IMG/VR virus record: IMGVR_UViG_3300008261_000125
Location: 1-64,000 of that record
Strand: one strand, 5' to 3'
DNA: 64,000 bases
Origin: a virus
Made by a program: the position numbers and the translations under genes. Shown here in pieces: positions 21,287-47,329 of this stretch. Position 1 is the first letter of the stretch. Each line of letters opens with the position of its first letter. Under the pieces are notes generated by a model. That model saw nothing but the letters and a program-made list of their open reading frames with translations. It ran no database searches and was not told where the DNA came from.

Positions 21287-21321
21287 AAAAAGGAGTGCTT
21301 CGGCACTCCTATTTTTTTTTT
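21287..21321. terminator. bidirectional intrinsic terminator between converging modules
   Basis: A run, AGGAGTGC-TTCG-GCACTCCT hairpin, then a T run. Confidence 0.92.
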
Positions 21322-24300
21322 AATTTCTACTGAACATGTCAAATGTCTGTAAACCTTTAACTGGATCAACTTGACTACCTGAGAAACCAACCATAGAGCC
21401 AAAATGATTCCATATTTTAGCTTCACCTTCTTTCTGCCAAGGATATGGACCTGCATCTCTTTTGTAATACAAGCTTTCATTTTCTCCTGGAGCAGCATGT
21501 AATGCTAAATCTGTCATAATCTTAGCATAAGATGTTACAGTAGGACCAAATGCTAATGATGTAGAACTAGATAAATCTAAATAGTTATCTAAACCAAACC
21601 CTGGTAATGGTATAAAACTTTGATTCTCTGCTTGAGTTTTAAGTAATAAAGTTAATGCATGGTTAGATAACCAACCATCTAAGTGAAAATCTTCTGCACC
21701 TAAAGCTCCTGATTTTTTTCTTAACTTTTCAAATCTGTCTTTATCATCTGGATCCCAACCAAACATTAATGCTACAGCTGCAGAAATAATAAATATCTGA
21801 GCAACATCAGCAATAACTTTAATCATAGCCATTTTTTCTGAGTTAGACATGTATGGTAATGATTTACCAAGACTTGTTATTGTTTTACCAACTGCTTTAA
21901 TAGCTTCAATATAGTAACCAGTTCTAATTTCATCTAATGGGAAGTTAGCTCTTTCACCACCAAATCTATACATGAACATACTTGTAAAGTATCTTCTCAT
22001 GAAAGCAAATAATCTATACGCAAAGAACTGTTGAGCTTGAGGTTGTTCAAACTTAGCAAATGCACCATTCAAATCTTTAAACTTTTCATGTACTGCATTT
22101 TGCATTTTGACAAACTCTTCTCCTAATTTAGCTTTACCATTTTGATCATAAGTAACTCCATAAGCTTCATCAATACCAGACTTAAGTGTTAACCTACCTT
22201 CTTTATCTAATTCAAAAGCATCAGCATAAGATATTTTAGTTTCATTACCATTTACAATTCTTGGTATTTTTTCATGGTACATCATAGCATAAAATACATG
22301 TAAAGCACCTTGCATTTCCATATACTTTCTAGGGCTATATACCCAGCTAATACTAGCTAAATCACTTGCAAATGTTCTAGAATAATCTCTACTAATAACT
22401 TCTTCAGCTTTACCTTGAGCAGGATCAAACATTAATATCATTTGAGTATTAACTGTGTTATAGTTAGCTCCCATGACCTTACTACTCCACTCAGGCATTA
22501 CTTCAAAGTTTACTTTAGTTCTAGCTTTAGCAAGAGATATAACATCACTTCTATCACCTGCAATTGCTTCTATATTACTTTGCCATATCATACCCCAGTA
22601 GTTTTTAATTGCTGAAGGTAAGTTTAATGCAAAGTAGTTGGTTGCAGCAGCACCGGTAATTGTATTAGTTACTTTGTTTAACCAATCTAAATGTTTATCA
22701 GAATACATCTCTCCTTTAAACTCTCTATTATATAAAGCTCTAAAGGCAGCTGTTCTAATTCCTTTATTTTTGTTACCAGTAAGATGTTTCATTGAATCTG
22801 TCATAGAGAAATTCTTTCTCTTAACACCTTCCATTTTCTTAAGCTCAGCATCAGTCTCATCAAGAGTAGCTAACATTGCTTTAGCCATAGGATTAATTTT
22901 ACTTAATACTCTTTGTCTTTCAGCTTGTAACATATAGAAGTTAAGTGAACCAACTATATCATAAGATACTTCATTAATAGGAATTCTACTTAATCCTTTC
23001 ATTGGTAACTTATCAAGTACAGGATCCATCAAACCATCTTTTACTATACTTAGTTCATCAGCAGCTTGTTGTAAATCAGGGTTTGCCAATCCTTCATCAA
23101 CATCACTGTCAATTCTAGAGGCTTCATTAGCTTCTTCTCTAGTTTTACCAGATATTGTTGCTGAAACCCCATTCTTAATACTCTTAAACCAATCACTCCA
23201 TCTTCTAGTTAATTCTCCTCTTTGAGCAGCTTCCAGTTGTTGTTTAATTCTTAGTCTAGGAATATCTAAATATAATTTATCAGCTGTTTCTAAACCTACT
23301 TGGTTTTGTATATGGTAGTTAGTTACTACTTCAAGAAGTTTCTTCTTGTTTTCATTTTGAATTACTTTGTAGTAATCTTCATTGATATAAGATTTAACTT
23401 CTCCATTCTTATCTACATAGGATGTTGGTACTCCTAGTTCTTCTGCTCTTTCTTTGGTAAGTGGTAGGAAGTTACCCTTATTGTCAATCACCTTTCCTAC
23501 ATAATCTCTAGCTTTTTGTTCTTCAGTTAATTTAAATGGAACAGTTCTAAAATTATTCTTAACTCTAGTATAAAAATATTTAGAGTTAGGGACTCCACTA
23601 AACTCAATAATTTCTTTACCTACATGTACTTTAGTTGTTTGATAGTATGCAGGTCCATCTTCTTCTTCTAGTGGTCTTGCTATACTCCATGCATGAAGTC
23701 TTTCATAGTTGTATTTTACTTCACCTTTTGCATTTTGATAGTATTTTTTAACATGATTTTTTTCAAACCATTTTTTAAATTCTTCATATTTCTTACCAGG
23801 AGTATTAAGTAATTTATCAATTTCTCTTGCATCTGTTAGAAAATCATTAGCACTTACTTCATCTAAAGTACTTTTATTTAAAATAATCATTTGATTATTT
23901 ATAGCTTCTAAGTAGTAAGAACTTGGCTCAGTATATCTTATCATACTAAGTTCAGCTAATGCTAATTTTAAATCTTCTTGAGCAGATCTTTCATCAGCTG
24001 TTAATTTAGAAGAATCAGATTCATATTGTTGTTTATAAATCAAATCATTAATGGTTTCTTGAATCTCTTTAATTTGAGACATCTTTTCATCCATTTTATC
24101 CTTCATCAATTCAGGATTAACTTGACCATTGTTATCTTTATATCCTAAGAATAAACTAGTTCTTTTTTCATATAATTTATCTAGTTTATAATTTTTAGGT
24201 AATCTTTTAGAAATATCTTCAAGTTTTTTAAAGATATCATTTACTTTATCATAATATGCTTGTGTATATCTTACTGCACTATTTTGTTGAATCCACTTTT

Positions 24301-27034
24301 GTACTATTTGATTAAACTCTGGTGTAAGATTACCATTTTCATCAAACTGTTTAATGTTAGCATATCTAGTATCATTATTTACTTTTTGAATGAAAGCATC
24401 TAGAGCTCTTTGGAAGGCGCCTTTTTTCTCTACAGATTCATAATACTTACCTGTTCTTTTTCTATGCTCTTTTAATGCAGTAGCAATTGCTAACCCTTCA
24501 TCATCTTTAAGAACACCATTCTCATCATATAAAGAAAACAATCTTTCTCTTTCAGTAAGTAAAATTGTTAAATCATCATAATGCTCAAAGAAGTCTAACT
24601 CATCAGCATTGGATGTTCTAAATTCAGATATTTTACTATCTATATTTTGTAAAGCTTCATATGCTAAAGGACTTTCATTAATTAATAGTGCTCTATCTGC
24701 ATAATATTTAGGTAAATATTCTCTATTAAATAAAGTTTCAATTTGTTCTTTCTCTTTATAAGCTTCTTCTAAAGCAGCTTTGTCTCCACTTTCTCTAGCA
24801 TCTCTAATTTTCTTTTTAATTAACTCTAAATCAAACCTCCAGTTTTTAACTGGTGTCATAAAAGAGATTACTTCTTCAGATTGTAACTCACCATTCTCAT
24901 CATAGTAAGCCTTCTTATCAATCATTGTTAAACCACTATCACTCCAATCACTTTTGAAGTTTACACTGTTCATACCTAAAGCAGCCATTAGTTCTTTAGT
25001 ATCTTTTGAGAACTGTTGAGCTCTAGCAAAAGCAGCTGCTGTAATTTGAGAAGTGTGAGATTTTAAATAGATTGCAAAGGTTGCTAAGATAGGATCAGGA
25101 TCACTTGTATAACTTACAAACATGTTACTCCAGAAATTAGAATCACCAAGTTTACCTTGATATAAAGCATTAACTTTCTCTTCAGTAAAGTTATACTTTT
25201 CTTTTCTTTCATTAAGTTCTTTTATTTTAGATCTTTTGTAGTTCTCATTACCAGCAATAGATTCTACTCTTTTTATTTCATCATCTATCTGTTTAACAAC
25301 TTTATCAGTAAATGATTTTAATAACTCAGTTGTTTGTTTAACAGAACCAATTCTTTTAATATCAGAAGTAATTTTTCTACCTTCTTTAGTTAAAGCATCT
25401 AATCTAGTAACAAACCCATATATGTAACTTGTTCTTTCTACCCCTGCATCTAGTAAGTTTTTTTCTGCTTCTTCAATGAAGTTAGCCCAACCTTTCAGTA
25501 AGTTCTCCATTGTAATAGCATCAACTATCTTATCCATTAAAGGCTCATTACTATTCTTTAATCTTTCTAAATATTCATTCATTTTAAAAAGATTAGCTTC
25601 TAATGTAAATAGTGTATTTACTAGATTTTGAGCTTTGTGAGTATCAGTTACTTTCTCTAATGCTTTCATTTGCTCTGGAGAAAGATTCTTTCTAAACATC
25701 TTTAAGTTCTCAGCCATACTAGTAAGAAAAGCTGACCCATCAGGATCAATTAATTCTTTTTTAATATTCTGTGATGTTCTTGCACTTTTAACTTCTTTAG
25801 TTTGTTTACCTACTATATCTAAGAAATTCTCAATAAAAGCTTGAAGTGTTTCATTGATTTTTTGTTTAGTAGGATTTTTCTTTAAAGTATCAGTAAGTTC
25901 TTTAGCACCTCTGTTTAAGTTTGAATTAAATTCATTAAAACTTTCAGCATCTACTTTTTCATTATCTACTTTAAAAGTTGCACTATTAAATAATGCTGCT
26001 ATTTCATCTAATGAACTATTAGTATTTAACTTACTTGTATTATCAGTATTAAACTTTCTTCTTATTTCAGTTCTTAATACTCCTAAATAATCTTTAATAA
26101 ATATGTTAAAGTCTTTAAGTCCTGGATTTGTACTACCTTCATTATTTAAACCTAATCTAGCATTTTTAGCATGTTCTTTTAAAGCTTCAGCAAGTACTTT
26201 TTCTTTAAACCCTGTTGTATCTCTATTTTTAACATCAGGATACCTAGCTGCTACTCTTTCAATTAGTGCTTGACCTATAGGAAGTTTCTCTAACTTTTCA
26301 TAAGCTTCATTAAATAATTTAGTAGCAGCTTTTCTTGATAATGCTATAATAGGCATAGCTAAATCTGCAAATTGAGTATTTAATGTTATCTTATCTTGTA
26401 CATAGTATATAGTATTTCCATAAGCAAATACTGCTTCTCCTCTGTAGGGGAAGACACCTTTAAGTAATATTTGAGCATCACTTGAGCTAATGATATTAAA
26501 CCTAATACCATAATCATTTTTATCAAACTTTAATGCATACTGGTGAAGGATTTCATTAGCTCTAATTTTATTTTGTAATTCAACAGGATCTATTTCAGTA
26601 TCATAAACTGGTACATCTGGTCTCTGTGCTGCCAACTCTTTAAGAGAATCAAACTTCTCTTCTACTGATTTCTCTAGTTCAGGTGTTCTGATAATCTTTT
26701 CATCTTGAAATATCTTTTCAGCATAACCTTCATCTTTTAACCAACTCTTAAACCCTGCATCCTGGAACATAGAATCATAAGAGTTATCAATCATATCAAA
26801 TACAGTAGTAGATATATTAAAACCAGCCTTAACAGTGGCTGGTATATTAGTATCTAGTAAAGCAGCAGCATCCTTTGGATTCTTTTCTGCATATAAGTAA
26901 AAAGCAGCTTTAACAGGTTCTGGTAATATTTCACTAGTTGAAGCTATGAATATTTTGTAAGCATTATCTTCACCCAAAGAACTCTCTAAAGCTACCCAAT
27001 CAGAATTTGTTTTTAAGGGACATGAACCTTTCAT
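21320..27034 (-). CDS. giant virion-associated (ejected) protein, 1904 aa
   Basis: Last gene of the RNAP cluster; helical; hydrophobic C-terminal segment; degenerate zincin-like N-domain; single Cys at residue 5. Confidence 0.8.
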   Translation of the reverse strand: MKGSCPLKTNSDWVALESSLGEDNAYKIFIASTSEILPEPVKAAFYLYAEKNPKDAAALLDTNIPATVKAGFNISTTVFDMIDNSYDSMFQDAGFKSWLKDEGYAEKIFQDEKIIRTPELEKSVEEKFDSLKELAAQRPDVPVYDTEIDPVELQNKIRANEILHQYALKFDKNDYGIRFNIISSSDAQILLKGVFPYRGEAVFAYGNTIYYVQDKITLNTQFADLAMPIIALSRKAATKLFNEAYEKLEKLPIGQALIERVAARYPDVKNRDTTGFKEKVLAEALKEHAKNARLGLNNEGSTNPGLKDFNIFIKDYLGVLRTEIRRKFNTDNTSKLNTNSSLDEIAALFNSATFKVDNEKVDAESFNEFNSNLNRGAKELTDTLKKNPTKQKINETLQAFIENFLDIVGKQTKEVKSARTSQNIKKELIDPDGSAFLTSMAENLKMFRKNLSPEQMKALEKVTDTHKAQNLVNTLFTLEANLFKMNEYLERLKNSNEPLMDKIVDAITMENLLKGWANFIEEAEKNLLDAGVERTSYIYGFVTRLDALTKEGRKITSDIKRIGSVKQTTELLKSFTDKVVKQIDDEIKRVESIAGNENYKRSKIKELNERKEKYNFTEEKVNALYQGKLGDSNFWSNMFVSYTSDPDPILATFAIYLKSHTSQITAAAFARAQQFSKDTKELMAALGMNSVNFKSDWSDSGLTMIDKKAYYDENGELQSEEVISFMTPVKNWRFDLELIKKKIRDARESGDKAALEEAYKEKEQIETLFNREYLPKYYADRALLINESPLAYEALQNIDSKISEFRTSNADELDFFEHYDDLTILLTERERLFSLYDENGVLKDDEGLAIATALKEHRKRTGKYYESVEKKGAFQRALDAFIQKVNNDTRYANIKQFDENGNLTPEFNQIVQKWIQQNSAVRYTQAYYDKVNDIFKKLEDISKRLPKNYKLDKLYEKRTSLFLGYKDNNGQVNPELMKDKMDEKMSQIKEIQETINDLIYKQQYESDSSKLTADERSAQEDLKLALAELSMIRYTEPSSYYLEAINNQMIILNKSTLDEVSANDFLTDAREIDKLLNTPGKKYEEFKKWFEKNHVKKYYQNAKGEVKYNYERLHAWSIARPLEEEDGPAYYQTTKVHVGKEIIEFSGVPNSKYFYTRVKNNFRTVPFKLTEEQKARDYVGKVIDNKGNFLPLTKERAEELGVPTSYVDKNGEVKSYINEDYYKVIQNENKKKLLEVVTNYHIQNQVGLETADKLYLDIPRLRIKQQLEAAQRGELTRRWSDWFKSIKNGVSATISGKTREEANEASRIDSDVDEGLANPDLQQAADELSIVKDGLMDPVLDKLPMKGLSRIPINEVSYDIVGSLNFYMLQAERQRVLSKINPMAKAMLATLDETDAELKKMEGVKRKNFSMTDSMKHLTGNKNKGIRTAAFRALYNREFKGEMYSDKHLDWLNKVTNTITGAAATNYFALNLPSAIKNYWGMIWQSNIEAIAGDRSDVISLAKARTKVNFEVMPEWSSKVMGANYNTVNTQMILMFDPAQGKAEEVISRDYSRTFASDLASISWVYSPRKYMEMQGALHVFYAMMYHEKIPRIVNGNETKISYADAFELDKEGRLTLKSGIDEAYGVTYDQNGKAKLGEEFVKMQNAVHEKFKDLNGAFAKFEQPQAQQFFAYRLFAFMRRYFTSMFMYRFGGERANFPLDEIRTGYYIEAIKAVGKTITSLGKSLPYMSNSEKMAMIKVIADVAQIFIISAAVALMFGWDPDDKDRFEKLRKKSGALGAEDFHLDGWLSNHALTLLLKTQAENQSFIPLPGFGLDNYLDLSSSTSLAFGPTVTSYAKIMTDLALHAAPGENESLYYKRDAGPYPWQKEGEAKIWNHFGSMVGFSGSQVDPVKGLQTFDMFSRN

Positions 27035-27039
27035 CTTTA

Positions 27040-30000
27040 TTAACAGTTTAATTTTTTGTCATCAATATCTTGTTTAGTAACAATAACCTGTCTATTTAAT
27101 ATGTCCAAAGGACTAAGTGCATCACTATTTCCAGGATTGTCATAACCAAACTCATCTTTAAGCTTGTTAGACAAATATACTGATAATTCACCACCTAAGC
27201 TAGTTGGTTGAGTAGTAGTTCTAGTAGTAAATTTCTTAAATCCTTCTATATCTTGTTTAGAACCTAATTCTTTGTACTCAGTAATAGGTTCATTTTTTAT
27301 ATCTTCAAGCATTTGCTTATAAGATTCAGCATGTCTATCTATTGTAGAATCTGGTACATTTGCCCTATTTTCTCCTCTTGCTATTTGTGTTTTAATTCTT
27401 TGTTTAGCTAATTCAGGATTTAATTCCATTAACTTATATTGAATATTAACAGTAGGTATTGCTTTTTTAATAGCTTCTATAAAAGGTAATCTTTTATCTT
27501 TAGTGAGATTAGTAGTATCAAATACAACTTGTTTACCTTGTTTAATTGCTTGTACAGCTCTATTAGCAGCTTCAATATAAATTTCTTTATCTTTAGATTT
27601 ATTATTTATATCACCTGTAAATTCAACTCTCATTGCATCAGGTTCTATAACTACTAAGTTTTCTTTAGGTAAAGATTTTATAAATGTAGATTTACCACTA
27701 CCACTTGTTCCTATAGGTAATATAACATTAGGTTGTTTAGTATCAAGATATTGAGAGTATTGTTCAGGTGTACCTATGTTAGCTAACTCAGGATTAGATT
27801 CAAATAGTTCTGATACTCCTTCTTTAACACTAGTAGATGGTTGAGTAGTTATAGGAGCTTGTTCTGATCTTATTTTTTGAAAAGGTAACTCATCTTCAAA
27901 CATGTCTGCTTTCCAGTTACCACTAGGTAAACCTTCTTCTATTCTTACAACTTCACTTCTAATTAAACTTCTAGGATACTTTTTAGCTACTTCTTTAAGT
28001 TTGGCTATTTTAGTATTGATTAAAGCTTGAGAAGTGTATTCTTTATTTACACTTTTTTTAGCTTGTTCATACTCTTCTTTTGTAATTTTAACCCAACTAG
28101 AAGATTTTGTAAAATCTTTATCTATTAATTTAGAATACCGACCTTCTATCATATCAAAAACATATCTAATATCTCCTATATTAAAAGCATTTACCCCTTC
28201 TTCACTATACTCCATTATTGAGTATTTCTTTTTAACACTATCAATACTCTCTTTTAAAGTTTCATTAGTTTGAGTTGGTTGAATACCTACTTGTTTACTA
28301 ATTTTAACTGAAAGATCATCAAATTGCCCCATATATTCTTTATAATCTAAAGCCTCTTTTTCTGTATTAAATATTGTACTTTTATTAAGATCTCCATAAG
28401 CAGATTCTACTTTTACTATATACTTAGTACCAAACTCTTTTTGTTTAATCTCAGGTTTAACTAATTTACCATATCTTTGGTCAAGGATAGAATTAATACT
28501 ATTTATAATCTTTTTAGTTTGATAAGGAATGTCTTCATCATATTCAAGTCTAAAATTACTTCCTGTTAAAGAAATACCCAGTTCATTATGGTGGTGATCT
28601 AAATTATCTACAATATTAGCTAAATTTGGTTGTACAGCATCAACATTCTTTAAAGAAGGATATTTAGAATAACTAACTCCTAATAATTCAGATTTTTTAT
28701 CTTTATTTATTTTTTCAGAAGCATCCCATACACTACCACTAAAAACATCAGCATTAGCAGCCCATAAAATGTCTTCTGATTGAGGGTAAATTTTAAATTT
28801 AATTTTACCTCCACCTCCTTCTAAATGACCTATTTTTTTATCAACAGGTTTAGTGTAAACAGAAATAGCAAACTTACCTCCAGCTTTCTCATTATCTTCT
28901 ATATGTTGCAATAAGTTTTGCATCATAAGATTTACATCAAATGAAGAATAAGCTCCTACAACAGAAACAAACTCTTGTCCTCTACTATATATTTCTTCAG
29001 GATTATATTGAATATTATTTACTTTTTTCCATTCTTCTATAATTTCTTTAGACTGTTCGTATTCTTTGTTTTTTGCTATAAAAGATTTAGCATTATGAGA
29101 TTCATTTGTTTTCTTTATCTCAATATTTGAAACATTATCCCTTTGATTTAAAGTTTCTACAAATTTTTCTGCTTCTTGTTTATTTATAAAATCTTTATTG
29201 TAATATTGAACATCATAAGGGTCTTCTGGAACATTTGGTCTAAAATTCATTTCTTCCCATGTTACCCAATGTGTTTCAGGTAATATCACGCTCTCTAAAT
29301 CAACATCTTCAACACTTTTAGCTAATTGACTAATATGATTACTAACTTCCTGATAAGTTTTAAACTTCATATTATCAGGAGTAGTATATTCTACTTCATA
29401 TCCTGGAAGTATAAGTTTAGAGTTAGAGTAAGCTAATAAATCAGCTATATCTCCAATAGTCATATTATCAGGTAATTTGTCTATTTCTACTTCTCTTTGT
29501 TTAAGAAGTGATTTAACAAACTGTTTTATTTCTTTAAGTAATCTTCTAAGAAGAGATATAAGTTTGCCATCTTTAACTGCATCAAGTTTATTAGCAGTCA
29601 TCATACCAAGAAGTTCTACAATAGCTTCTTCTTGTTGTTCTTCTAAAGAGTATCTTATAATTTCAGGACTATCCGGGTATTGCTCTATATATTCTTCTTC
29701 AGTAAAACCTTCATCCCAGTTGTCTTTTATTTTTTGAGATAACCCCTTTATATTGTAATCTCTCTTAACCCTATCTAATACTTCTTTACCTCTACCTGTT
29801 TCAAGTTCTTTGAGTAAATTTTTATATAGTGTAGGAATAGAAGCTAATTGTTGTTTAAATGTTATTTCTTCTTCTTTAGAAAATCCTTCCCATGCTTCTG
29901 CTAATTTATCTTTTTCAAATTGTGATAATTTGTTATTACTTAAAGTTTTAATAGCTCTAATAATAGGATGTCCTAATATTTCATGTATAGGAGTATCTAA

Positions 30001-30330
30001 TGTAGCATATGCTAAATTAACGACTGCTGATGTACCATCCATTAAACTTCCATATTTGTCTATATATCCATCTTGTAATTTACCTTTAAACTCTTGAGTT
30101 CTATCAGATATAAATCTAACAGGTATTCCTATTCTATCAGACATTCTAGCTGCTATATCTCTTAAAGTTTTTTCAGATGCAATTATTTCATCAGATGTAG
30201 CTAATTGATAATTTACTTTTGAATCAGATGCTGTATATCTTTTAGCATATTCTACTTCTGCATAAAGAGGATCACCTACTTCAGCTAATATTTGCTTGAA
30301 CTCTATACTATTTGGATTAACACAAATCAT
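27040..30330 (-). CDS. polyvalent virion protein: zincin-like domain plus PNK/AAA_33 kinase cassette
   Basis: TPIHEILGHP (29968-29985); PIGTSGSGKST, EPDAMR and VFDTTNL (about 27290-27735). Confidence 0.8.
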   Translation of the reverse strand: MICVNPNSIEFKQILAEVGDPLYAEVEYAKRYTASDSKVNYQLATSDEIIASEKTLRDIAARMSDRIGIPVRFISDRTQEFKGKLQDGYIDKYGSLMDGTSAVVNLAYATLDTPIHEILGHPIIRAIKTLSNNKLSQFEKDKLAEAWEGFSKEEEITFKQQLASIPTLYKNLLKELETGRGKEVLDRVKRDYNIKGLSQKIKDNWDEGFTEEEYIEQYPDSPEIIRYSLEEQQEEAIVELLGMMTANKLDAVKDGKLISLLRRLLKEIKQFVKSLLKQREVEIDKLPDNMTIGDIADLLAYSNSKLILPGYEVEYTTPDNMKFKTYQEVSNHISQLAKSVEDVDLESVILPETHWVTWEEMNFRPNVPEDPYDVQYYNKDFINKQEAEKFVETLNQRDNVSNIEIKKTNESHNAKSFIAKNKEYEQSKEIIEEWKKVNNIQYNPEEIYSRGQEFVSVVGAYSSFDVNLMMQNLLQHIEDNEKAGGKFAISVYTKPVDKKIGHLEGGGGKIKFKIYPQSEDILWAANADVFSGSVWDASEKINKDKKSELLGVSYSKYPSLKNVDAVQPNLANIVDNLDHHHNELGISLTGSNFRLEYDEDIPYQTKKIINSINSILDQRYGKLVKPEIKQKEFGTKYIVKVESAYGDLNKSTIFNTEKEALDYKEYMGQFDDLSVKISKQVGIQPTQTNETLKESIDSVKKKYSIMEYSEEGVNAFNIGDIRYVFDMIEGRYSKLIDKDFTKSSSWVKITKEEYEQAKKSVNKEYTSQALINTKIAKLKEVAKKYPRSLIRSEVVRIEEGLPSGNWKADMFEDELPFQKIRSEQAPITTQPSTSVKEGVSELFESNPELANIGTPEQYSQYLDTKQPNVILPIGTSGSGKSTFIKSLPKENLVVIEPDAMRVEFTGDINNKSKDKEIYIEAANRAVQAIKQGKQVVFDTTNLTKDKRLPFIEAIKKAIPTVNIQYKLMELNPELAKQRIKTQIARGENRANVPDSTIDRHAESYKQMLEDIKNEPITEYKELGSKQDIEGFKKFTTRTTTQPTSLGGELSVYLSNKLKDEFGYDNPGNSDALSPLDILNRQVIVTKQDIDDKKLNC

Positions 30331-39300: not shown

Positions 39301-41192
39301 GGAGTAGCAATACTTTCAATTAACTTAGATCTTAATAAACTTTCTAGTTTATCTTCTTCATCAGTATCTTCTTGTATAATTGTTTTAGCATTATTAACTA
39401 CTTCTTTTACTTCTTGTTCTACTACTGCTGTTTCATTAGTAGGTTCAAAACTGAAATATCCATTAGCTACTAATGGTCTTTCTGTTGTAGAATCAAAAGC
39501 AATTCTGGGGATCATGTTTTGTAAAACATAATCTTTAATGTAATTAATAGGTTGTACACTTACTACACCATCTTTAATATTAAATCTTTCAATGGTTACT
39601 TTATTTTTTAAATCAGTAGAGAAGTTAGCAAATAGTTTTGCACCCAAAGTTTTTACTAGCTGTTCTTTAGCTTGTACTTTATCTGATAAATCTAACTGCT
39701 GTCCATTTAAACTAATAACAATTTCATTGTTTACTATTGAAAGATTAAATACAGATCTATCTAATTTACTAGCATAGTTATTAAAATAACTTTGTCTATC
39801 AGCTGGAGATAATGGTTTACCATTTTCATATACTAAATCATCAATCAGTACAGAAATTAAACTATCAAACAATGATCTATCACCTGCAAGAAGGTTTCTA
39901 CCTTTTAATGATATAGGTTTATCAATATTGTTTATTTTAATAGATGGTAAGTTTAATGTTTTAACAACACCTTTTACCATCATATCAGCATATGCTATTG
40001 CAATACTTTCAATTTCAGTATCTGTAAGATTAAATTGACTTAGTGTTTTTTCAACTAAAGATTTGTATTGTTTTAATTTTTCAGGATCAGTTATTTTCTT
40101 AAATGTCTCATCAGTATTTTCATGATAACCTTTTTTACCACCTGTTATATCTAACAAAATTGGTTGGTTATCCATTACAGATTTGGATATAAGATCACTT
40201 TGTTTTTTTTCTTCATTAACCATTTGGTTAATTTTAGAAATAAGTTCATTTCTTAATCTTGAGTATTCAAGAGGATCATTTTTAGATTGCTCTCTTAAAG
40301 CTGTCTCATTACTTTTTAATAACTCTTCTTTAAGTGCTTTAACTTTAGCATCAGAAGAGTCTTTCATATAGAAGTAAACTATTTTACCATCTTCTTTAGA
40401 TGTAATCTCACCTTTACTATTAAAGTATAAAAACTCACCTTTGTTATTAGTTAATGCTAGAATTATTCTCTTAGAACTTAAAGTAGCTCCAGGATATATA
40501 TTTTTTTCTAAATCAGGTAATGTATTTTCTACTATTGGTTTTAATTTAAAACCTTTATGTCCACTATATTCTACATTAGAGTAATTAGCATTATCAGTTG
40601 TATTAGCTTCTAATACTTTAGTTAATACATTATAGTAAAAGTTTTTACCAGCATTTGTTTTAGTAAATATAGGAAGACCTGATACTTCTTCTAACTGTTG
40701 ACCTGTTGAGTTTTGTAAAGATAAACTAGTTAATATTTTATTAAGAACTAATTCTAATATTTGATTTTCATTAGATACTTCAGACTGAGTTTCAGGAGTG
40801 GTAACACTATTTTCTAATATGACTTTCATACTAGTTTTAGTACCAACTTTAATGTAATTAGCAATTTCTTTTAAAGGATCCTCTGACTTATTAACTAATA
40901 ACTCAAAATTTCTTACAGCTTTTAAATCAAAGTTTTTGTCTATTAACTGAGTTAGTAATTTAGGATTGTCTTCAATAACTTGAAAAAACACTGTAGGAAT
41001 AACTGCTGCTATTCCTAAAGACTTAGCTTGGTCTTTGTTTTTCTCATAAGCAACATAATAAACATCTCTTACTACTTCTAATATTTTAAAAGGTTTATCA
41101 GGAGTCTTTAAGTTGTTTAAAATCTTATTGTAGACCTGATTAGCAAGAACTTTAGCTAATTCTTTATTTTCATCTAAATTACAAATACTCAT
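30330..41192 (-). CDS. virion-packaged crAss-like DNA-dependent RNA polymerase with zincin, NADAR and ASCH domains
   Basis: About 3620 aa; DGQGWISFDSYR, STQLRK, RIPTQ...FLP...GD and SQLMNGAVDVGKD; YHEAWH (39102-39116); C-terminal NADAR and ASCH domains; catalytic DxDxD not found. Confidence 0.8.
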   Translation of the reverse strand: MSICNLDENKELAKVLANQVYNKILNNLKTPDKPFKILEVVRDVYYVAYEKNKDQAKSLGIAAVIPTVFFQVIEDNPKLLTQLIDKNFDLKAVRNFELLVNKSEDPLKEIANYIKVGTKTSMKVILENSVTTPETQSEVSNENQILELVLNKILTSLSLQNSTGQQLEEVSGLPIFTKTNAGKNFYYNVLTKVLEANTTDNANYSNVEYSGHKGFKLKPIVENTLPDLEKNIYPGATLSSKRIILALTNNKGEFLYFNSKGEITSKEDGKIVYFYMKDSSDAKVKALKEELLKSNETALREQSKNDPLEYSRLRNELISKINQMVNEEKKQSDLISKSVMDNQPILLDITGGKKGYHENTDETFKKITDPEKLKQYKSLVEKTLSQFNLTDTEIESIAIAYADMMVKGVVKTLNLPSIKINNIDKPISLKGRNLLAGDRSLFDSLISVLIDDLVYENGKPLSPADRQSYFNNYASKLDRSVFNLSIVNNEIVISLNGQQLDLSDKVQAKEQLVKTLGAKLFANFSTDLKNKVTIERFNIKDGVVSVQPINYIKDYVLQNMIPRIAFDSTTERPLVANGYFSFEPTNETAVVEQEVKEVVNNAKTIIQEDTDEEDKLESLLRSKLIESIATPEQKAKAKTWWEKSALSKAKDSNGKPLITLKEAFNLVNSDAWASFSNATITLFAGSDYTHNYHEAWHAFSQIYLSKADRNKLYEAVGQLPGTFTVTRKNESNNIQTVKVEFTEASRKELEEFIAEEFRVYAMNNGKFKTENEKSNIFSRIFDRVWKFLKTLFKGTTDINVYSNPGSQGILSEMFNQLYTAESPEQLNMYTPSMDNAEFGVLNSGIIAKDGTVIFTPVEASLLVKSMDGIISDITTGYLLKGKYDAAANILKGQERLTLLYNSAIKKKLASRLDVLRKEFEADYAKDKNNKTKWDKIERKYKRNNVLLLIKALDNYGDATNSLNGKGDKLDLITYHLQNSSFNEMIDENYESPLSKSGREGGNETESYELATADCTYILKTLLKQEVVNGERVNILNSLGFPEPINHKQFFNNLIDKVGGEKRVDELYKKLASVKNTSPLFAQLLEKLGDPTVVMGADKGAGASKIWMGVFRSLNLEREDLVTSKFKEETIDNQTQVSFVVGKVSADHSAIKNKVWPAKFSTESGPFVTVNANKENTLNLSKVVKEFLTSSAIGKEGITKYFIKDESLKIPFLNAIGMYLEDNYDVRKAINDDTTKAFDYIVNAIGLAEANKDILAKRNLLPITNIVNFLGQKHNKIKIELATGEFIEGAIDNQASNVNTLAKIDAEFSTENISRMKLTAEKSKKSAFSLNTTLTQIVYALKKAGSLDELKSGAYSYVPHLVKENNPHVIGSVIMNSLFDTTGKRNNLNGIELVDLTGSQYEDLSDDSNGVSHGSMTKVDKFITDFASMLKDGYIEAVRHGEKSTYTGVKVKRLNTYSLKKNNHLYVDTQAFLKDINGNYLLGYNPFDKVMDIMIPKLEGELRRIQKIKDNKEYYSKAKDFYEKGIKFDYFDDILNTKDGELKNKLINEYASQLNDETTLNSLLNKNLELRKEIEKEIINYFETSKKSLEVNNYNKVFGNNVPNFLRSIAEEHLTEGQVATTDSIKDALLYSFAINSSLHANEVILLELGDGFQFNHINDESLKRVPTYNSSGLIFPTDELAKLFINTHVKRPYEDSLVKSGKLVRRDPNQTESRLYTGKGNKAIIKESKVDSIYLDDYAEMFRHWLKEKKYQGDINEALYGKGGSETNITGGLLQPYTGIKDGDGQGWISFDSYRILKNLENSWTEQQEAAYQKELRGESLTPEELTDLFPVYKLQYAGPLVTELKNYPIQSIDKFSLLPLIPSVIKGLPLEKMHLAMMAQNIDYALFDSGAKRSYLRADDKTNGDSIYEGDTSNIKEYQDINFTPNPIYFEYLKNQTEVNKYFKGKSVLSTQLRKVFNVGLFDNGVPIDYKGTKEEWNSLTKAEKLKNSNAYKNTQQVYKQLKRLTEYMRKDLLEEMGWTEVNGLPEGNIDDMITYVVDILKSQGYSDHEIDFVQYSSNKKIDLSLSPQAARLEKLLMSVINNRLIKLKIKGEPLVQVSSALTQSFKKPTIEQTKEYDDFGTNGLSGYIVSTNGSKETIGAKVKVALTDNYQNLFSTNYYVNGKKTTDKVAVYVKNPDTESEIKYVLDYDASFIRLNEMIKNEAWLKENENSIRMTGVRIPTQGPNSVEFVQIHEFLPASAGDTYKTPEELDAKIQELKTKLKDLKADKLTIKEDLDDFRNSIKKESKHKRLVKEKFFAYTTYNNEELLKTLSNPKEQEFIKKNLPESYQILSKQIKGFDSEKYPEIENLITELISKDSELSRAYNELSNLKEHKRNFTAAIQNKFIDNIIGVMEMPEMAFSLMQPNDTHLTKPLSNTLKKDIQKADNEVDHTKSIKTGESTPGGGVSPTKMTEYAYNLKKQQDNITGKNILGLITLHNTFANMLTMAGAKMNYSFEVENPYYSDSEVLSPVKVPIKLRLNYNKTKEIDSKTLKEIEVISLSNKTDAEKINNIADILSQLMNGAVDVGKDAWISYLQGNMEVIPKTLFLLQAGVPIEDIAYFVSNPMIRKYVESKINYKSPLAKIIYGPKHRNTTTSAKNKARKELLKGVMVDLDGNQLKNNIAGFYKILNTRYKDVSFSKESLKEVAKQSFKFNKEQIAGLLQYFYIEDLIEEFDNLKGYLNVDTESAVDNFAAQAKIHDIEKIDKFKTLDSSLKVHFKEESAISSFFIQEFSRALFGKNLFATRDNDLVNKFLIKTLENPIERAILKQETGLDEETFINRFKNALSLYIFTNVLKQYKQGASEYKQTPISELLNENSPVKSIEQLRSDFANENHLSSSKSDEAYLRRGLFYIHPSAFNQNDVESFIEFSLEREYLRKIKSLESLLGTKEFQSAKNRLVNSGVSLFVKREGESQEDYTNRLNKIVYEYVLMHEALSNTYNNYELFRSGEHTTARKLISIIESYPELKLQFDLVRQFSASSISSKKNHMSRTNFKIKNLTELDENLSEEYYNEWLKLANPKEMKVSEKTANRAQANAYISEFFAQLPMIAFLQSGMDSSEFSLNSIMPYDRYRPVMEKASEAFYTFLNKNESKANMVLEGFYEFFKQNNQTENNRLKGRGISYKRSVNQLIADATGKDTYLFDKPYVSKIDDGVYVISQSYEDPSTNQIKSLPAGELQMLKQGNPDIIFILNDNDLQVNLNISTETELEQAKADIDTAINKIKESGKIIVLSDKGFGKSTQPQVTVSKGVEISSNAKGLAGALTNPTELSKSKGNITKSYPVEFRGKTYKDAEAAYQALKSTATKDDGPNSTYNLMVDIITAKLQQHPRLVTEINKQGGSAWILSSTHQPTSKNTVWETNGRNWFIETLNDAYSSVSQPQAPVTTPNKLSGQMKMPYGKNKRSDVTSSTTFDAILKGERTATTRYSDHKAFDYWKSAKVGDIITWDSGDGRTVDVVVTKTLHPLKDSGKTAKEWSKLEGWSVDYFNNKVRLELDKAWQIEFKLATPTQAPITTKSQGTARTFEQLYNNEERTTILVALRDKYKNAYKNLSDDEIVQRINNRLMTEDRDKTIEILNKCYK

Positions 41193-41194
41193 AA

Positions 41195-44100
41195 TTAACA
41201 AATGTTATCTTGTATATCTTTTTTAAGTTCATCTTCTGATTTCTCTGTGTAAGTTATATTAACATTTTTAATAGCTGATTGATTTTGTACTGCTGTATCA
41301 ATATCCTCTTTACTATTTTGTATTCCTTGGATGTCAATTATTGATTTAATTTCATTAGGAATGTTTTCTGTTTTTACACTGATATCACCAGATAATCCTG
41401 ATAAAGATACAGAATTTTCTTTTATTTCCTTTATTATATATCTACCATTTTTCTCTGGATTATCAACTGATTCATACATAACTTCATAATTTCTGTCTTT
41501 AGCAACCTGAAGACTGTTAATGTTAATATTCTGATTTAATGTTTCTATAGTAGCTTGTTTACTCTCTGGTACTTCTACTTTAGCTTTTTCATTTTTAGGT
41601 GTACTCTCTCTTATATATGTAAGAACATTTCCATTATATAATACTTCAATTACATCAGTAGAAGGTTTGTCACCAACTGCTTTTTTAATCTTTTGTATAG
41701 TAACCTTTTCTCCAATAGGTAACTTGTTATCTTTAAAGAATTGAGTTACTCTTACTACTCTACCATCATCTAACACTACATGATATGAACTCTCATCAGC
41801 TGCATTAGGATATACACCTTTTTGAAATACACCACTAAGTTGCTCACCTGGCTTAAGTTCATCAACAATAGTTTTAAATTTCTTTTCTATTGATAACTCA
41901 TTAAATTCTCCTACAGGTTTACCTTTTAAAGCTTTTAGTTCTGCATCATATCTAGTATTGATTTTAGTTACTTTGTTACCTAAGTGAGTACTTCTGTACT
42001 TTTCACCTTTTTCTTCATATCTTCTTTGGTCAAAAGTATTGTAACCTATTTTTGGTTCTAAAGATGTTTCAACTGTTTCAATAACTTTTCCATCTTTAAC
42101 AATAGCAAGTTTTACATCTTTCCCTTTTACTTGCTCATTAGTATCATAAACATTTCCAGCAGAATCAACTACATATAACTTTTTACCATCTTGCCTATTT
42201 TGTGCAGAAAGAAAATCTTGTTCTTGTTGTACATTTTTAAACTTAACAAATACAATTAAGTCATTAGGTTCATTTTGTTCTCCAGTAGCTGTTTTAAATC
42301 TTTGTGTTCTACCATCAGGTAACACAGTATAAACACTTCCTTTAGCTGTTTCAAAACTTTCTATATCAGCTTTCTTATCAGAAACAGTACCTTCTAAAGC
42401 AGCTAGTTCTGCATCGTAATCTCTATATGCAATAGCTTCTGCTTTTCTTATTCTATTACTAGCAAGATTTTCAAATAGTTCAGAATCAGTAAATCCTTCT
42501 GAACCCATTGCTTTTCCTGTATCTGACACCACAGCTATTATCCAAGTCCATAATCCATTTTCTTTTCTTTTAGCCCTCCCAACTTTTACAGTACCATCAG
42601 ATTGTTTTTTACTTATAAGAATTTCATCTTTTCCTTCAATATCTTCAATTTGAACTGGTCCAGAAGGTTTAACTTCTACAAATTGTCTATCAGACCCGTT
42701 AAAAAGAGTTGTTTTATTTAAATTTTTTAAATCTTCTTGTCTTCTCTCTTCTATATCAGCTTTCTTAGCTTTTAAATCTGTAGTAGTTTCGGTTCCAGTT
42801 GGTACTGGAGCTGCTACTTCTAATTTAGAAGGGATGTATTTATTTACAATCTCTTTAAATTCATTATAATTAATCTTTGTTTTACTTGCTCTTGGTTCTT
42901 CTGTTAATGAGGTAATATTACCATCTAAATCTTCTTTTGTTTTAAAAGCTATAAGTTCTAAGTTAGTTACTTTTATTCCTGTAGTATTCTCTAATAAGTT
43001 TTTATATAGAGAAAGCTGTAGGGAATATTTTTCTTTCTTAGCAGACTTATCACTTTTGTTTCCAAAGTATTCCCATTTTGAACTAGTTTTCATGTCATAT
43101 ATTTTGTATTCTCCACCAGGAGTAACTACAAGTAAATCCATTTCACCAGCTATAGTTTGAGGCTTACCATTTACTTCATTAGTTGTAACACCAGATAACA
43201 CTAATCCACTAGCAACTACAACTTCATTTTGTTCAGCTAATTGTTGATCAAATTCAATTAATTTAGTTCTTAAATTGTTAAAAGCTGTCTCACTCATATT
43301 TGATGGTTTTATAAGTTCAACACCCTCAAAATAATCACGGACTAATTTATCTACAACATTACCTCTAATTGTAGTTTCTTCATAAATATATTTTTCAAAT
43401 AGCTTTTTAAAATTATCATTTGAAGTATTAGACTTAAGTTCTTCTTTAAATAGTTTTAATTTTCTACCATTAAATTGTTTATTAAATAACTCTTGAGCTT
43501 TTTGTTTAGCTTCATTATCTTTATTATCTGCTAAATCTTTTTTAATAAATTCAAATATACTGTCTACATATGCTTCTCTATTTTTAGCATTTGCTTTAAC
43601 AGTATCATCTTCTTGAGCTTTTATATAAGCATCAAGAATAGGAGCAGCAGATTTTTCAAATACAGCAAACTTGCTATAATCTGGATAATTTTCTTCTAAG
43701 ATTTGATCAATAAGTTTTGTTACTCTAGTGTCTTTCTTTTCACCATTGATAATATAATTATTATCAACTTTATCTTTATTAACTGTTCTCTTAGATAAAG
43801 CTTTAACAAGAGCTAATGCATTTTCTTGTTCAGGTGTCATTTTAATTGACAATCTGATTTTATAGTTAAGTGCTTGTTTAACTTTATTTAATTCATTTAA
43901 AACACTAGGTTCAGTTTTATATTTTTCTAAAAGCTCTTTATGTTTATTTTCAAGTTCCTTAAGTGTTAAGTTTAAATACTCTTGAAACTCAGCTGTTTTT
44001 TCATTTAGTATTTCTTTTTCTAATTGTTTTTTGAAATCATCAACAATATTTTTACCAGCTGGAAACTGTGTAGAAAATTCTTCAATAGTCATTTCATCAC

Positions 44101-47100
44101 TAATATCTCCTGCTTTAATTAAAGCATTGTATTTTTCTTCTAGTTTAGCTTTAAGTTCATCAGGGTATTCTTCATACTTAGCAGAATCAAATGATTTTAA
44201 AGTTTGTAGTTTCTCATCTTTTTTCTTTTGCTTTTCTAATTCAGCTTTTACAGTTACAATATTTAAATGCATCTCCCATAACTCTAAAGCTTTATCAAAG
44301 TCAACACCTTGAGTTACTTGTTCATTTCTAGAAGGATCTATAAAATTAGTAGGAAGTATAGGTGTTTCCCCTTTATCCAAAGCTTTTTGATATTCAGCAA
44401 TGTACTCTGCAGATAATGTTAAACCAGTTTCTTTTGTAATCTCATTTAAAGCATCATTTTTTTCTTGAAGCTTTACTAACAGATCAAACATTTTTTTTGC
44501 TTGTTCTGCTTTTTCTTTATCATGTTCAGTAATAGCTTGTTGAAGTCTATACTGTAAATTCATAAAACCTTTAGGACTGCTTAGTACATTAATACTTTCA
44601 GCTAAACCTTGTCTGTCTTTTTGAATTTGTAATCCATCTTTTAATAAAGAAAATGCTTCATCCATGTCTTTATCAAAAACTATGGTATTATTTTTTTTAC
44701 TTAAATATTTAGCATATTTAGCAAAAACCTTTTTAGCATTTTCATGTATCTTTTCTTTTTCAATAGGATCAGTTGTTTTTTCTGCAGCTAATAACTCTTC
44801 TTGAAACTGTTCTAATATTTCAATTCTTTTTTCTTTATCTCTTTTAACATCAGCTTGTTCTGGTACATTACCTAAAACTTTTACCTCATCTCTTAATAAC
44901 TTAAGTTCTTTTTCTAAACTAGGAAGAGATAATACATTCATTAAAGATTGAGAATCTTCTTTAGCAATATTACTAGACAATTTAGAAAATGAGTTATACA
45001 TTTTCTCTAGTCTTTGACCATAATGCTGAAAAGTATTAGTAGCAAATACTAAGTTTTGTTGTGCTTTTCTCCAAGCAATGGATGAATTAACAGCTGCTAA
45101 ATAAGCATCACTACCATGTTCATATTGATTTGGATTAAATGGATTTGGATAATTAGTAGCTACTTCTTCATAAGTTTCTTTAATCTTTTTAGCTCTGGCA
45201 ATAACACCATCCATTGCTTTTAAAGCTTTACCTACATCTTCTTTAGCTACACCATATTTAGCAAATGCTTCAGCTGCTTCTTCTGGAGATAAGTTTTTAT
45301 AATCTTCTAACTGATCTACAAATAAATCAAACTTACTTGTTTCTAATGCAGTCATTATATGATTATATTCAATTTCTTCTTGAGCATCTTTAGCTTCTTT
45401 ATGCTTACCTTCTTTAATAGCAGTATATAAATCATCTGATAAAGTACCATTTCTTATAACATTATGAATTTCTGGAAAAAAATGTTTTAAATTATCTTTA
45501 GAAAGCTCATTTAATATCTTAACTTGTCTATCAATAGTTTCATCTCTTTTTCTCTTTGCTTCTTCAATTTTAGATTTATCACCTGCTAGTTTAGAAAGTT
45601 TTGTAAATGACCAAGCAGGTACTGCCATAATAGGTTGAGCAAACATACCCATTAAGAAACCTCCAGCAAAAGTCTCAGCTCCTTCAGCAGAAAACTGATC
45701 TTTCATACCTTCCATAAAGTGACCCATGTAACCATGATATGCACCCATCTTAGGATCTTTAAAAACTGCAAGTGCATGATTAATTGCACCTTTAGAAATA
45801 GCTTCTTGAAGATTCTCTTGAATACCTTCAGCAAAGTTGGCTTTTAAATAGTTCATACCAACTTGACCATATATTTTAGGTTGTGCTAATGACTTAGCAG
45901 CAGCTCTAGCTTTAGAACCAAAACCTTCACCTAATTTAGCAAAGCCTTCAGTTGTAGTTGCTTTTAATGGTTTTGATGCTATGATGTCATCAAGTAATTT
46001 AACTGAGCTACCTCTACCTACCATTTTACGAATAGGTGCAAGCATTGTAGCATAAAGTAATTTATTACTAGTCATGATTGCTGGTAAGTTCCAGAAAGCA
46101 GTTCTTCTAGCTTCTTCTCCTGATAATGCTTCTATTTTTGCAAGTTCTTTTTCATCAGGCTCTTGACCAAAATGTGTTCTTTTATATTCATCAATCAATG
46201 CTTTGTTAGCATCAATTTTAACCATACCACCTTCTAACTTAGCTTCTGATACAGCAGTTTTAATACTAATAATATCATCTGCAAAAGCTCCGAATGTTTT
46301 AGTAGTCTTAATAAGATCAGTTGCATAATCAGTTTTCTCTAAAGCTTGTAATGTATTTTCAAATGGGTTTAATGTTCTTAAAGTACCCATTGCTATTTGT
46401 TTAGCCCCTAACTCACCAGCTTTTATAGAATTATAAAAGTTTCTAGCATCATTAAAACTTCTAATACCCTTAATATTATCAGTAGCTTTTTTAACAGTCT
46501 CAGCTTCTTTAGCTAATCTTCCAGCAGCAGCAGCTTTTTCAGCACCTGCTACAGCTTCACCAAAACCCATTAATTTTCTAGTTGCCATACCTGCTTTAGC
46601 AGCCATTCCTGGTAATGTAACTTCACCAGCTAAACCACCTGTAAATGCAGTAACAGCTCCTAATGCAACCTCTTCTGCTAAGAAGTCAGCAGCAATACCT
46701 ATAGTGTAAGCAGAGTTTAAGAATGTATTAGTTACAAATCCACCTATACCACCAGAACTAGAGTTACCAATAGCCATAGCTTTTTGCATTTCTCTAGCAC
46801 TTTCAATATCCGGGGCTAATGGATCTGTGAATAAAGTACCCCATGCTTTAATACCTGATTTAAAACCAGTTAATGCTAAGTTATCCCATTGTGATGCAGC
46901 TCTTACAAACTGATCACCAAATGTCATCTTACTATTATATAGTGCTTCATTATCTCTAAAGGGGGAGAATCCTAAAGTTTTAAATTGATCAGTAGAGTAA
47001 TATCTTTCAAAGTTAGCACCATCCACATCACCATTGTATGTATATGGTCTCATCTTTACATAATCACTCTTAGAAGACTGAACATTTATATCAAATAGTT

Positions 47101-47329
47101 TTGCTTCATCTTTAGGACTAACAGCAGCAGTATTAATATCACTTAGTTTTGTTTTAGGATTAGTACCAGTTATTGGATTACCTACAACATTTTTATAAAT
47201 ATTTAAACTTGCAGGTTTTGCTGAATACTCTCCTAAGTCTGTAGTAACACCTGTGGTATTAATACTAGAAAAATCTTTAGGGGAAGCTGTGTTTACTGCT
47301 TCTTCAGATGTGTTTAATTCTTCTGCCAT
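41195..47329 (-). CDS. giant ejected protein with hydrophobic segments and a RecB-like PD-(D/E)XK nuclease domain
   Basis: Gly/Ala-rich hydrophobic N-terminal helices; RGNVVD...IAGEMDLL...IYDMKT...YSLQLSLY (about 42870-43400). Confidence 0.8.
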   Translation of the reverse strand: MAEELNTSEEAVNTASPKDFSSINTTGVTTDLGEYSAKPASLNIYKNVVGNPITGTNPKTKLSDINTAAVSPKDEAKLFDINVQSSKSDYVKMRPYTYNGDVDGANFERYYSTDQFKTLGFSPFRDNEALYNSKMTFGDQFVRAASQWDNLALTGFKSGIKAWGTLFTDPLAPDIESAREMQKAMAIGNSSSGGIGGFVTNTFLNSAYTIGIAADFLAEEVALGAVTAFTGGLAGEVTLPGMAAKAGMATRKLMGFGEAVAGAEKAAAAGRLAKEAETVKKATDNIKGIRSFNDARNFYNSIKAGELGAKQIAMGTLRTLNPFENTLQALEKTDYATDLIKTTKTFGAFADDIISIKTAVSEAKLEGGMVKIDANKALIDEYKRTHFGQEPDEKELAKIEALSGEEARRTAFWNLPAIMTSNKLLYATMLAPIRKMVGRGSSVKLLDDIIASKPLKATTTEGFAKLGEGFGSKARAAAKSLAQPKIYGQVGMNYLKANFAEGIQENLQEAISKGAINHALAVFKDPKMGAYHGYMGHFMEGMKDQFSAEGAETFAGGFLMGMFAQPIMAVPAWSFTKLSKLAGDKSKIEEAKRKRDETIDRQVKILNELSKDNLKHFFPEIHNVIRNGTLSDDLYTAIKEGKHKEAKDAQEEIEYNHIMTALETSKFDLFVDQLEDYKNLSPEEAAEAFAKYGVAKEDVGKALKAMDGVIARAKKIKETYEEVATNYPNPFNPNQYEHGSDAYLAAVNSSIAWRKAQQNLVFATNTFQHYGQRLEKMYNSFSKLSSNIAKEDSQSLMNVLSLPSLEKELKLLRDEVKVLGNVPEQADVKRDKEKRIEILEQFQEELLAAEKTTDPIEKEKIHENAKKVFAKYAKYLSKKNNTIVFDKDMDEAFSLLKDGLQIQKDRQGLAESINVLSSPKGFMNLQYRLQQAITEHDKEKAEQAKKMFDLLVKLQEKNDALNEITKETGLTLSAEYIAEYQKALDKGETPILPTNFIDPSRNEQVTQGVDFDKALELWEMHLNIVTVKAELEKQKKKDEKLQTLKSFDSAKYEEYPDELKAKLEEKYNALIKAGDISDEMTIEEFSTQFPAGKNIVDDFKKQLEKEILNEKTAEFQEYLNLTLKELENKHKELLEKYKTEPSVLNELNKVKQALNYKIRLSIKMTPEQENALALVKALSKRTVNKDKVDNNYIINGEKKDTRVTKLIDQILEENYPDYSKFAVFEKSAAPILDAYIKAQEDDTVKANAKNREAYVDSIFEFIKKDLADNKDNEAKQKAQELFNKQFNGRKLKLFKEELKSNTSNDNFKKLFEKYIYEETTIRGNVVDKLVRDYFEGVELIKPSNMSETAFNNLRTKLIEFDQQLAEQNEVVVASGLVLSGVTTNEVNGKPQTIAGEMDLLVVTPGGEYKIYDMKTSSKWEYFGNKSDKSAKKEKYSLQLSLYKNLLENTTGIKVTNLELIAFKTKEDLDGNITSLTEEPRASKTKINYNEFKEIVNKYIPSKLEVAAPVPTGTETTTDLKAKKADIEERRQEDLKNLNKTTLFNGSDRQFVEVKPSGPVQIEDIEGKDEILISKKQSDGTVKVGRAKRKENGLWTWIIAVVSDTGKAMGSEGFTDSELFENLASNRIRKAEAIAYRDYDAELAALEGTVSDKKADIESFETAKGSVYTVLPDGRTQRFKTATGEQNEPNDLIVFVKFKNVQQEQDFLSAQNRQDGKKLYVVDSAGNVYDTNEQVKGKDVKLAIVKDGKVIETVETSLEPKIGYNTFDQRRYEEKGEKYRSTHLGNKVTKINTRYDAELKALKGKPVGEFNELSIEKKFKTIVDELKPGEQLSGVFQKGVYPNAADESSYHVVLDDGRVVRVTQFFKDNKLPIGEKVTIQKIKKAVGDKPSTDVIEVLYNGNVLTYIRESTPKNEKAKVEVPESKQATIETLNQNININSLQVAKDRNYEVMYESVDNPEKNGRYIIKEIKENSVSLSGLSGDISVKTENIPNEIKSIIDIQGIQNSKEDIDTAVQNQSAIKNVNITYTEKSEDELKKDIQDNIC

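Follow-up and report, generated by a model that had tools for sequence, protein, structure and literature searches.

How does a phage pack a set of giant proteins, an RNA polymerase among them, into one particle, and how does it deliver them in order to its host? In the crAss-like phages this cargo amounts to about 1 megadalton (MDa), and the atlas of the phage crAss001 leaves both its packing and its ordered delivery open (PMC10172136). The question is posed afresh by a 64,000-nucleotide (nt) stretch of viral DNA, positions 1 to 64,000 of the IMG/VR record IMGVR_UViG_3300008261_000125, which we call the window; the source record is 95.6 kilobases (kb) long, about 80% complete and 29% guanine plus cytosine. 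On its minus strand four genes lie in succession, encoding proteins that we refer to as A (2044 residues; 41195-47329), B (3620 residues; 30330-41192), C (1096 residues; 27040-30330) and D (1904 residues; 21320-27034). B is a homologue of the crAss-type virion RNA polymerase, its length being counted from the ATG (MSIC...) common to its homologues. The four proteins hold next to no cysteine, and almost all of what they do hold sits at ends that face a neighbour. We think it likely that A-D are the giant cargo of a divergent crAss-like phage, joined head-to-tail by disulfides between these terminal cysteines into one covalently bonded unit of about 1 MDa.

The arithmetic is simple. Together A-D have 7 cysteines in 8,664 residues, or 0.08%; in the plus-strand genes of this window the figure is 1.3%. 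Six of the seven are no more than 5 residues away from one of the six ends that face a junction, making three pairs, and were seven cysteines scattered at random, the probability of at least six landing there would be 1.2e-14. A, the putative chain starter, has its sole cysteine as its last residue (Cys2044, codon TGT at 41198-41200, immediately 5' of the stop). B, a middle link, has Cys4 (41181-41183), Cys3618 (30339-30341), two residues short of the C terminus in NKCYK*, and Cys1014 (38151-38153), in the context ADCTY, which is the only internal cysteine of the four proteins. C is capped at both ends, by Cys3 (30322-30324) and by its last residue, Cys1096 (27043-27045). D, the putative terminator, has Cys5 only (27020-27022). 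All of these codons are placed from the gene calls. The two outer ends, the N terminus of A and the C terminus of D, are free of cysteine. A preliminary description, drawn from the letters of the window, had counted seven cysteines with six of them in gene-order terminal pairs, and it was right in the count and in every coordinate.

Is this a quirk of one genome? Homologues of all four proteins say otherwise, even in sets that include truncated genes and wrong start calls. The A family, with identity down to 27%, has a cysteine 0-7 residues from the C terminus in 119 of 120 homologues and one near the N terminus in none of the 120; those 119 make up all but two of the 121 cysteines in 225,515 residues. 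For B, we took the full-length representatives of 50%-identity clusters, 127 in all: 116 have the N-terminal cysteine and 126 the C-terminal one, and internal cysteines turn up at shifting positions. Among 120 homologues of C, the N-terminal cysteine is present in 107 and the C-terminal one in 89, and 196 of their 217 cysteines are terminal, though the C-terminal domains differ among homologues. All 13 D homologues have a cysteine at position 3-5, and none of the 13 has one at the C terminus. The ends themselves have recurring forms. The tail of A, ...[FI][LI]N[NK][LI]C, looks like a helix ending in cysteine, and the head of B, MxCxL[ST]x[EDK]Q, looks like a capped helix with the cysteine just ahead of it. 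For C and D, the preliminary description had proposed a shared N-terminal motif, C-x-x-x-(x)-N-S-x-[DE]-[WF]. As written this holds only roughly: C reads C-V-N-P-N-S-I-E-F and D reads C-P-L-K-T-N-S-D-W, where S and D are adjacent with nothing in between. What does recur is the head C-[PIV]-[NL]-x-x-x-[PS]-[DE]-[WF], in about a third of the C-family relatives and most of the D-family ones.

If the terminal cysteines belong together, they should come and go as pairs, and this can be followed in related loci. We retrieved 40 non-redundant IMG/VR loci with a C-family profile. Consecutive Cys-poor giant genes meet at 52 junctions in these loci, and 48 of the 52 have both cysteines; two have only the downstream one, none has only the upstream one, and two have neither, one of these lying across a sequence gap and the other involving a gene 2 kb off. 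The last gene of the run, where complete, lacks a C-terminal cysteine in 31 of 31 cases. Over 173,456 residues of chain open reading frames there are 99 terminal and 40 internal cysteines, which puts the internal content at 0.023%. The pairs also change when genes fuse or split. In four A-B fusions (P0303, P0317, P0361 and P0384) only the C-terminal cysteine is left, with none at the joint or the N terminus, and in C-D and B-C fusions the junction cysteines are likewise absent. Conversely, where gene C is split by a GIY-YIG endonuclease gene, the fresh ends read ...KEC* and MACKY..., and the halves of cargo genes split in this way bear a new terminal cysteine pair. Because fusion loses a pair and splitting gains one, the pairing of neighbours' terminal cysteines gains support. 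Free-standing GIY-YIG homing endonuclease genes lie between the halves of split giant cargo genes in several loci (L013 11848-12588, L015, L016, L025 and L002 1715-2257).

Smaller proteins obey the same grammar. Within the clusters there are proteins of 99-318 residues with exactly two cysteines, one at each end, and by their sequences they appear to be extra links in the chain. The double-capped link would then be a recurring element, and the preliminary description of the 1096-residue protein C as a 'plug-in link' finds backing here. Other genes inserted among the giants (endonuclease, ferritin, DUF5856, NinG, amidase and YkuD) have internal cysteines only and Cys-free ends. Ferritin-like genes sit amid cargo genes at L040 12992-13483 (Pfam Ferritin), L021 8532-9023 and L018 9257-9745, the last two called by the same N-terminal sequence as in L040, and DUF5856 genes at L006 4383-4736 (Pfam) and L022 7414-7767 (similar). 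Since they lack terminal cysteines, by the cysteine rule these ferritin-like and DUF5856 genes are probably not members of the chain.

A sceptic might ask whether the cysteines matter as amino acids at all. They could be by-products of a nucleotide signal at the junctions: translational coupling, a promoter or terminator motif, or the target-site duplication of a mobile element. TGT does adjoin a stop or start codon at all three window junctions, and ATTTGT flanks the A/B junction on both sides. Yet TGT and TGC are both used for the terminal cysteines (85 and 15 codons), the spacing of paired genes runs from -17 to +1893 nt and may hold whole inserted genes, the cysteine lies anywhere from 0 to 8 residues from the end, no duplication is seen in the flanking residues, and the rule is kept by partner genes on opposite strands 4 kb apart. 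We give this explanation next to no chance, and its target-site variant we rejected outright, as the flanking residues differ. Rejected too were read-through of a single polyprotein gene (the three window junctions are in different frames), split inteins or protein trans-splicing (the 0-8 residues past the cysteine are far too short) and lipidation of the lipoprotein or CaaX type (a signal peptide is lacking, and the host is a bacterium).

A link of the kind we favour, a disulfide between neighbours' ends, has been seen directly in one phage. In the electron cryomicroscopy structure of cyanophage A4 (Anabaena phage A-4L), the C-terminal helix of gp27 lies in a cleft of gp26 and is stapled there by a Cys1715-Cys5 disulfide, the whole sitting in a pentameric ring round the portal axis, the pre-ejectosome (PMC12002296). 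The A-4L genome shows that gp27 (1717 residues) and gp26 (1114 residues) hold one cysteine each, the bonded one. The A/B junction of the window has the same layout, with adjacent genes in the same order, an upstream cysteine near the C terminus (in A4, two residues from it), a downstream cysteine at position 3-6 (in A4, position 5) and otherwise Cys-poor proteins. A4 also differs in scale: it has one link between two proteins, in a phage of T7-like size (42 kb), and its chain has no RNA polymerase, whereas the window has three links among four proteins, and in relatives of the window the number of links ranges from one to at least five, small plug-in links occur, and cysteine pairs are gained or lost with fission and fusion. 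Homology of gp27 and gp26 to the window proteins was not found, the best E value in a blastp search of A-4L gp25-gp29 against A-D being 0.29. The A4 paper makes no general rule of its terminal cysteine link (PMC12002296).

Would the ends of A and B come together in the same way? We folded A 1905-2044 with B 1-220 as a complex, each with its own alignment, alongside three controls. The pair scored 0.85, against 0.01 for the best control. The pass mark was calibrated on 80 solved complexes, of which 58 passed, and 110 mismatched pairs, of which 2 did, and these counts are only a rough guide here, because alignments of our own making were used. Contact agreement across the runs was at least 92% and partner pLDDT (predicted local distance difference test) at least 78. 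The confident interface joins A 2002-2044 to B 2-26, 44-76 and 101-122 and so takes in both cysteines; the output reports no sulfur-sulfur distance. A search for solved structures with sequence similarity to either A or B found none. The model supports an arrangement in which the C-terminal helix of A docks on the N-terminal part of B with both cysteines in one interface, a likeness to A4 that for the window exists as a model only.

The fold also bears on who follows whom. The cysteine rule by itself would allow either B or C as the successor of A; the predicted fold favours B. In the preliminary description the proteins were joined C-to-N by their terminal cysteines in gene order, and cognate end pairs were expected to be predicted together and terminal pairs to be kept across homologous clusters. 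The C-to-N joining is supported by the pattern, its conservation in four families and at 48 of 52 junctions in the 40 loci, the asymmetry of first and last protein, the coupling to fusion and fission, the small links, the A/B fold with its cognate interface, and the A4 precedent. The relative order of B and C does not follow from the cysteine rule, and the threading and reductive release that the description also proposed are more speculative. Nor could we read a pairing code from the sequences: among about 50 junction pairs, no clear rule of tail-type with head-type specificity emerged, save at homologous split sites.

Three other ways of using the same cysteines have to be set against this evidence. 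In the first, B and C each cyclise through the cysteines at their own two ends, leaving only A and D to pair mutually. The counts fit this equally well, for the middle proteins do have both cysteines. But two-protein systems (A4, FpV4, the p-crAssphage-like genome and crAss002) can pair only between chains, as is seen directly in A4; the fold sets the C terminus of A on the N terminus of B, not of D; and an A-B fusion removes exactly the C-terminal cysteine of A and the N-terminal one of B, a loss that under cyclisation would strand B's partner cysteine and the cysteine of D. We consider cyclisation very improbable.

In the second, neighbouring cysteines share a metal ion and form no disulfide. 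This Cys-metal clasp was the alternative offered in the preliminary description, and it would work in a reducing gut, or in the cytoplasm during assembly. Each end offers only one cysteine, however, and in the end contexts that we inspected no His, Asp or further Cys recurs that could complete a site; the sole solved example, A4, is a disulfide. A clasp seems improbable to us, a little less so than cyclisation, and from the A4 precedent we infer that the bond between the terminal cysteines is a disulfide.

The third deserves more room. The covalent links could be the very ones we propose and merely staple a folded, symmetric cargo core, a pre-ejectosome, against the pressure of the DNA, as in A4, and have nothing to do with threading, the order of exit or release by redox chemistry. 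The A4 disulfide does sit in a ring round the portal axis, crAss001 virions do contain disulfides elsewhere, stabilising the tail and portal vertex (PMC10172136), and the A/B fold is an extensive helix-in-domain interface, not two loose tags. Most of our data are consistent with this explanation. A staple could sit anywhere in an interface, yet the cysteines never lie more than about 8 residues from the end of a chain and always run from C-end to N-end, and in fused genes a cysteine pair can give way to a peptide bond, all of which is in keeping with a topology that has to be linear, like that of a polyprotein. On balance we regard a mere staple as unlikely, though well ahead of the two explanations before it.

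The chain that we favour can be compared with cultured phages. The four proteins correspond as a set to gp47, gp50 and gp49 of crAss001 and to gp67, gp66 and gp65 of phi14:2, which occupy the same genome position, show weak but significant similarity (by blastp, A against gp47, 4e-20; B against gp50, 7e-8; B against gp66, 1e-7) and follow the identical cysteine rule. In crAss001, gp47 has a single cysteine at 2339 of 2341 residues, gp50 has cysteines 5, 1334 and 2404 of 2412, and gp49 has Cys5 only. In phi14:2, the single cysteine of gp67 is its last residue, the polymerase gp66 has only Cys3 and Cys2179 of 2180, and gp65 has Cys3 only. The counterparts in both phages have been detected in virions by mass spectrometry (PMC10172136; bioRxiv 10.1101/2020.03.07.982082), and by analogy A-D are probably packed in the particle and injected. 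The window differs in having four genes to their three, with one extra double-capped link, and in a B that lacks the DFDxD loop discussed below. Neither paper mentions terminal cysteines, and in the crystal structure of phi14:2 gp66 the termini are disordered (PMC10172136; bioRxiv 10.1101/2020.03.07.982082). Our literature search found no paper describing terminal cysteines in crassvirus cargo proteins.

The rule also holds in cr85_1, the p-crAssphage-like genome (LMMB), crAss002 and FpV4, the last of which, a further case of fusion, has a 4287-residue protein with a lone cysteine at 4286, followed by a protein that begins MAC.... In crAss001 and cr85_1, the gp47-like starter lies on the strand opposite gp50 and gp49, 4 kb apart, and the rule is intact. 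An apparent exception, cr108_1 (L042), turned out to obey it: its annotated open reading frames of 2967 and 798 residues are one polymerase gene, broken within DFDxD (...AKAGSD / YDIDK...) by about 290 nt (21384-21673), probably a self-splicing intron, and the joined polymerase conforms. Upstream of the chain in LMMB, crAss002 and FpV4 we noticed cargo-like proteins with a lone terminal cysteine and no evident partner, namely an 861-residue protein ending ...QSCR (L047 5576-8161), gp30 ending ...FRCGGKKKIA (L046 6393-8066) and a 598-residue protein beginning MKKKC... (L048 8054-9850); these might pair between their own copies.

How might such a chain work? Internal cysteines would be purged, as in other ejected phage proteins, and one would be retained at each end that meets a neighbour. 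Each protein would dock its C-terminal helix on the N-terminal domain of the next, and the two end cysteines would then form an intermolecular disulfide on top of the docking, which would make A, B, C and D equivalent, in covalent terms, to the one fused polyprotein found in some relatives. More speculatively, the link would hold the proteins at 1:1 stoichiometry and in a fixed N-to-C order of exit, the short overhangs (no more than 8 residues) would let the joint through a narrow channel, and, in the cytoplasm, host reductants would part the proteins. It is plausible, as a hypothesis, that the chain serves threading through the tail in N-to-C order followed by reductive release; the order of exit is a point that the crAss001 atlas paper leaves open (PMC10172136).

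One can go a step further, tentatively, and think of a modular 'cysteine-cap' code, though we would sooner bet against it than for it. N- and C-capped proteins would be disulfide-spliced into one thread that leaves N-end first in fixed order and is undone by host reductants, so that plug-in enzymes could be added or exchanged and giant genes could survive the cuts of homing endonucleases; a starter without an N-cap and a terminator without a C-cap are the chain ends in this scheme. A simple sequence rule predicts membership of the cargo, the first and last protein and the joining points. In annotation it can point out small injected effectors and mend misplaced start codons. One example is gp33 of crAss002 (L046 17088-17190), whose annotated start seems 32 codons early, since SCTPSNP, a capped head of the usual kind, comes right after Met33. 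The rule also suggests a possible way to load phage particles with foreign proteins.

Several things weigh against the covalent chain. Taken as a sequence pattern, the rule would fit N-N or C-C pairings too. The case for a disulfide in crassvirus cargo is built from sequence comparison and one model, and that model may in part reflect what the program knows of A4-like structures, whose link lies in a folded five-fold ring rather than in a thread. The anoxic gut is home to many crassviruses, and their assembly in a reducing cytoplasm puts the time and means of oxidation in question. We found no thioredoxin gene in the 80%-complete record; a search for Erv1 gave no match there, and none in the control genomes either. 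Of the homologues, 10-25% lack one expected cysteine, partly through truncated genes or wrong starts, a B homologue in locus L021 has a Cys-free C terminus, and in some C homologues the cysteine lies 13 or about 63 residues short of the end. The crAss001 atlas, for its part, leaves the cargo proteins unresolved and their ends unmentioned (PMC10172136).

Depletion of cysteine as such has a precedent in the N4-like phages. The ejected proteins of Schitoviridae (gp50/gp71, gp51/gp72 and gp52/gp73) are nearly Cys-free, which has been explained by their passage through the envelope (PMC11445570). The window resembles them in that a giant virion RNA polymerase and the proteins ejected with it are depleted of cysteine, with an internal content here of 0.01-0.07% and a single internal cysteine in the 8,664 residues of A-D. 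It departs from them at the ends: six terminal cysteines are present in A-D, whereas in Schitoviridae cysteine is absent throughout (0.00075% in gp71 homologues) and conserved terminal cysteines are not reported (PMC11445570).

What would the chain carry? In A, a nuclease domain of the PD-(D/E)XK type spans roughly residues 1315-1505. C has an HExxH zincin motif (H116, E117 and H121) and, at residues 862-1020, a P-loop kinase domain of AAA_33/Zeta-toxin-like type; a tblastn search with C against GenBank phages matched P-loop kinases in Bacillus phages only. HExxH is invariant in the aligned homologues of both B (YHEAWH, residues 692-697) and C (HEILGH, 116-121), and the chain thus has two zincin-like domains. 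Some C-family members (P0006, P0052, P0058, P0086, P0119 and L016 5564-7237) carry on beyond the 'C-terminal' cysteine with a conserved module, ...KGYPSHxxGGVD...GLxxPK, that is some 60 residues long.

B is related to the crAss-type virion polymerase at a distance. By tblastn it matches cr108_1 at 5e-14 and the cr85_1 'putative RNA polymerase' at 1e-4, and our representative library holds 305 homologues of it; a pattern search of IMG/VR with B alone gave no match. The catalytic DFDVD/DFDxD motif is present in 42 of 42 aligned homologues (...EIVAKSGxDFDVDK...), and B itself has no DxDxD anywhere. Exactly at the catalytic loop, at window positions 34461-34466, residues G2243/D2244, about 37 residues (about 111 nt) are missing in frame. 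B could be a dead polymerase, or the loss could reflect a defective genome or an assembly deletion.

The surroundings of the four genes are those expected in Crassvirales. A-D share a strand with the tail and cargo genes, lie directly downstream of them and close the structural block, and the open reading frame map of the window shows other large genes preceding A-D on the minus strand. One of these, encoding 1205 residues (60189-63806), has a match at 1e-40 to a family of virion structural proteins. A bidirectional terminator-like hairpin (21291-21310, strand not assigned) stands directly past gene D and closes the minus-strand block, which makes D its last gene. Two genes upstream of A-D, of 498 and 556 residues (50214-53392), have zero cysteines. 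The virion genes further upstream, at 53450-57745 and 57766-60189, are Cys-poor as well, and the few cysteines they have sit near each other in twos, at 321/324 and 1088/1093 in one of the two genes and at 686/691 in the other.

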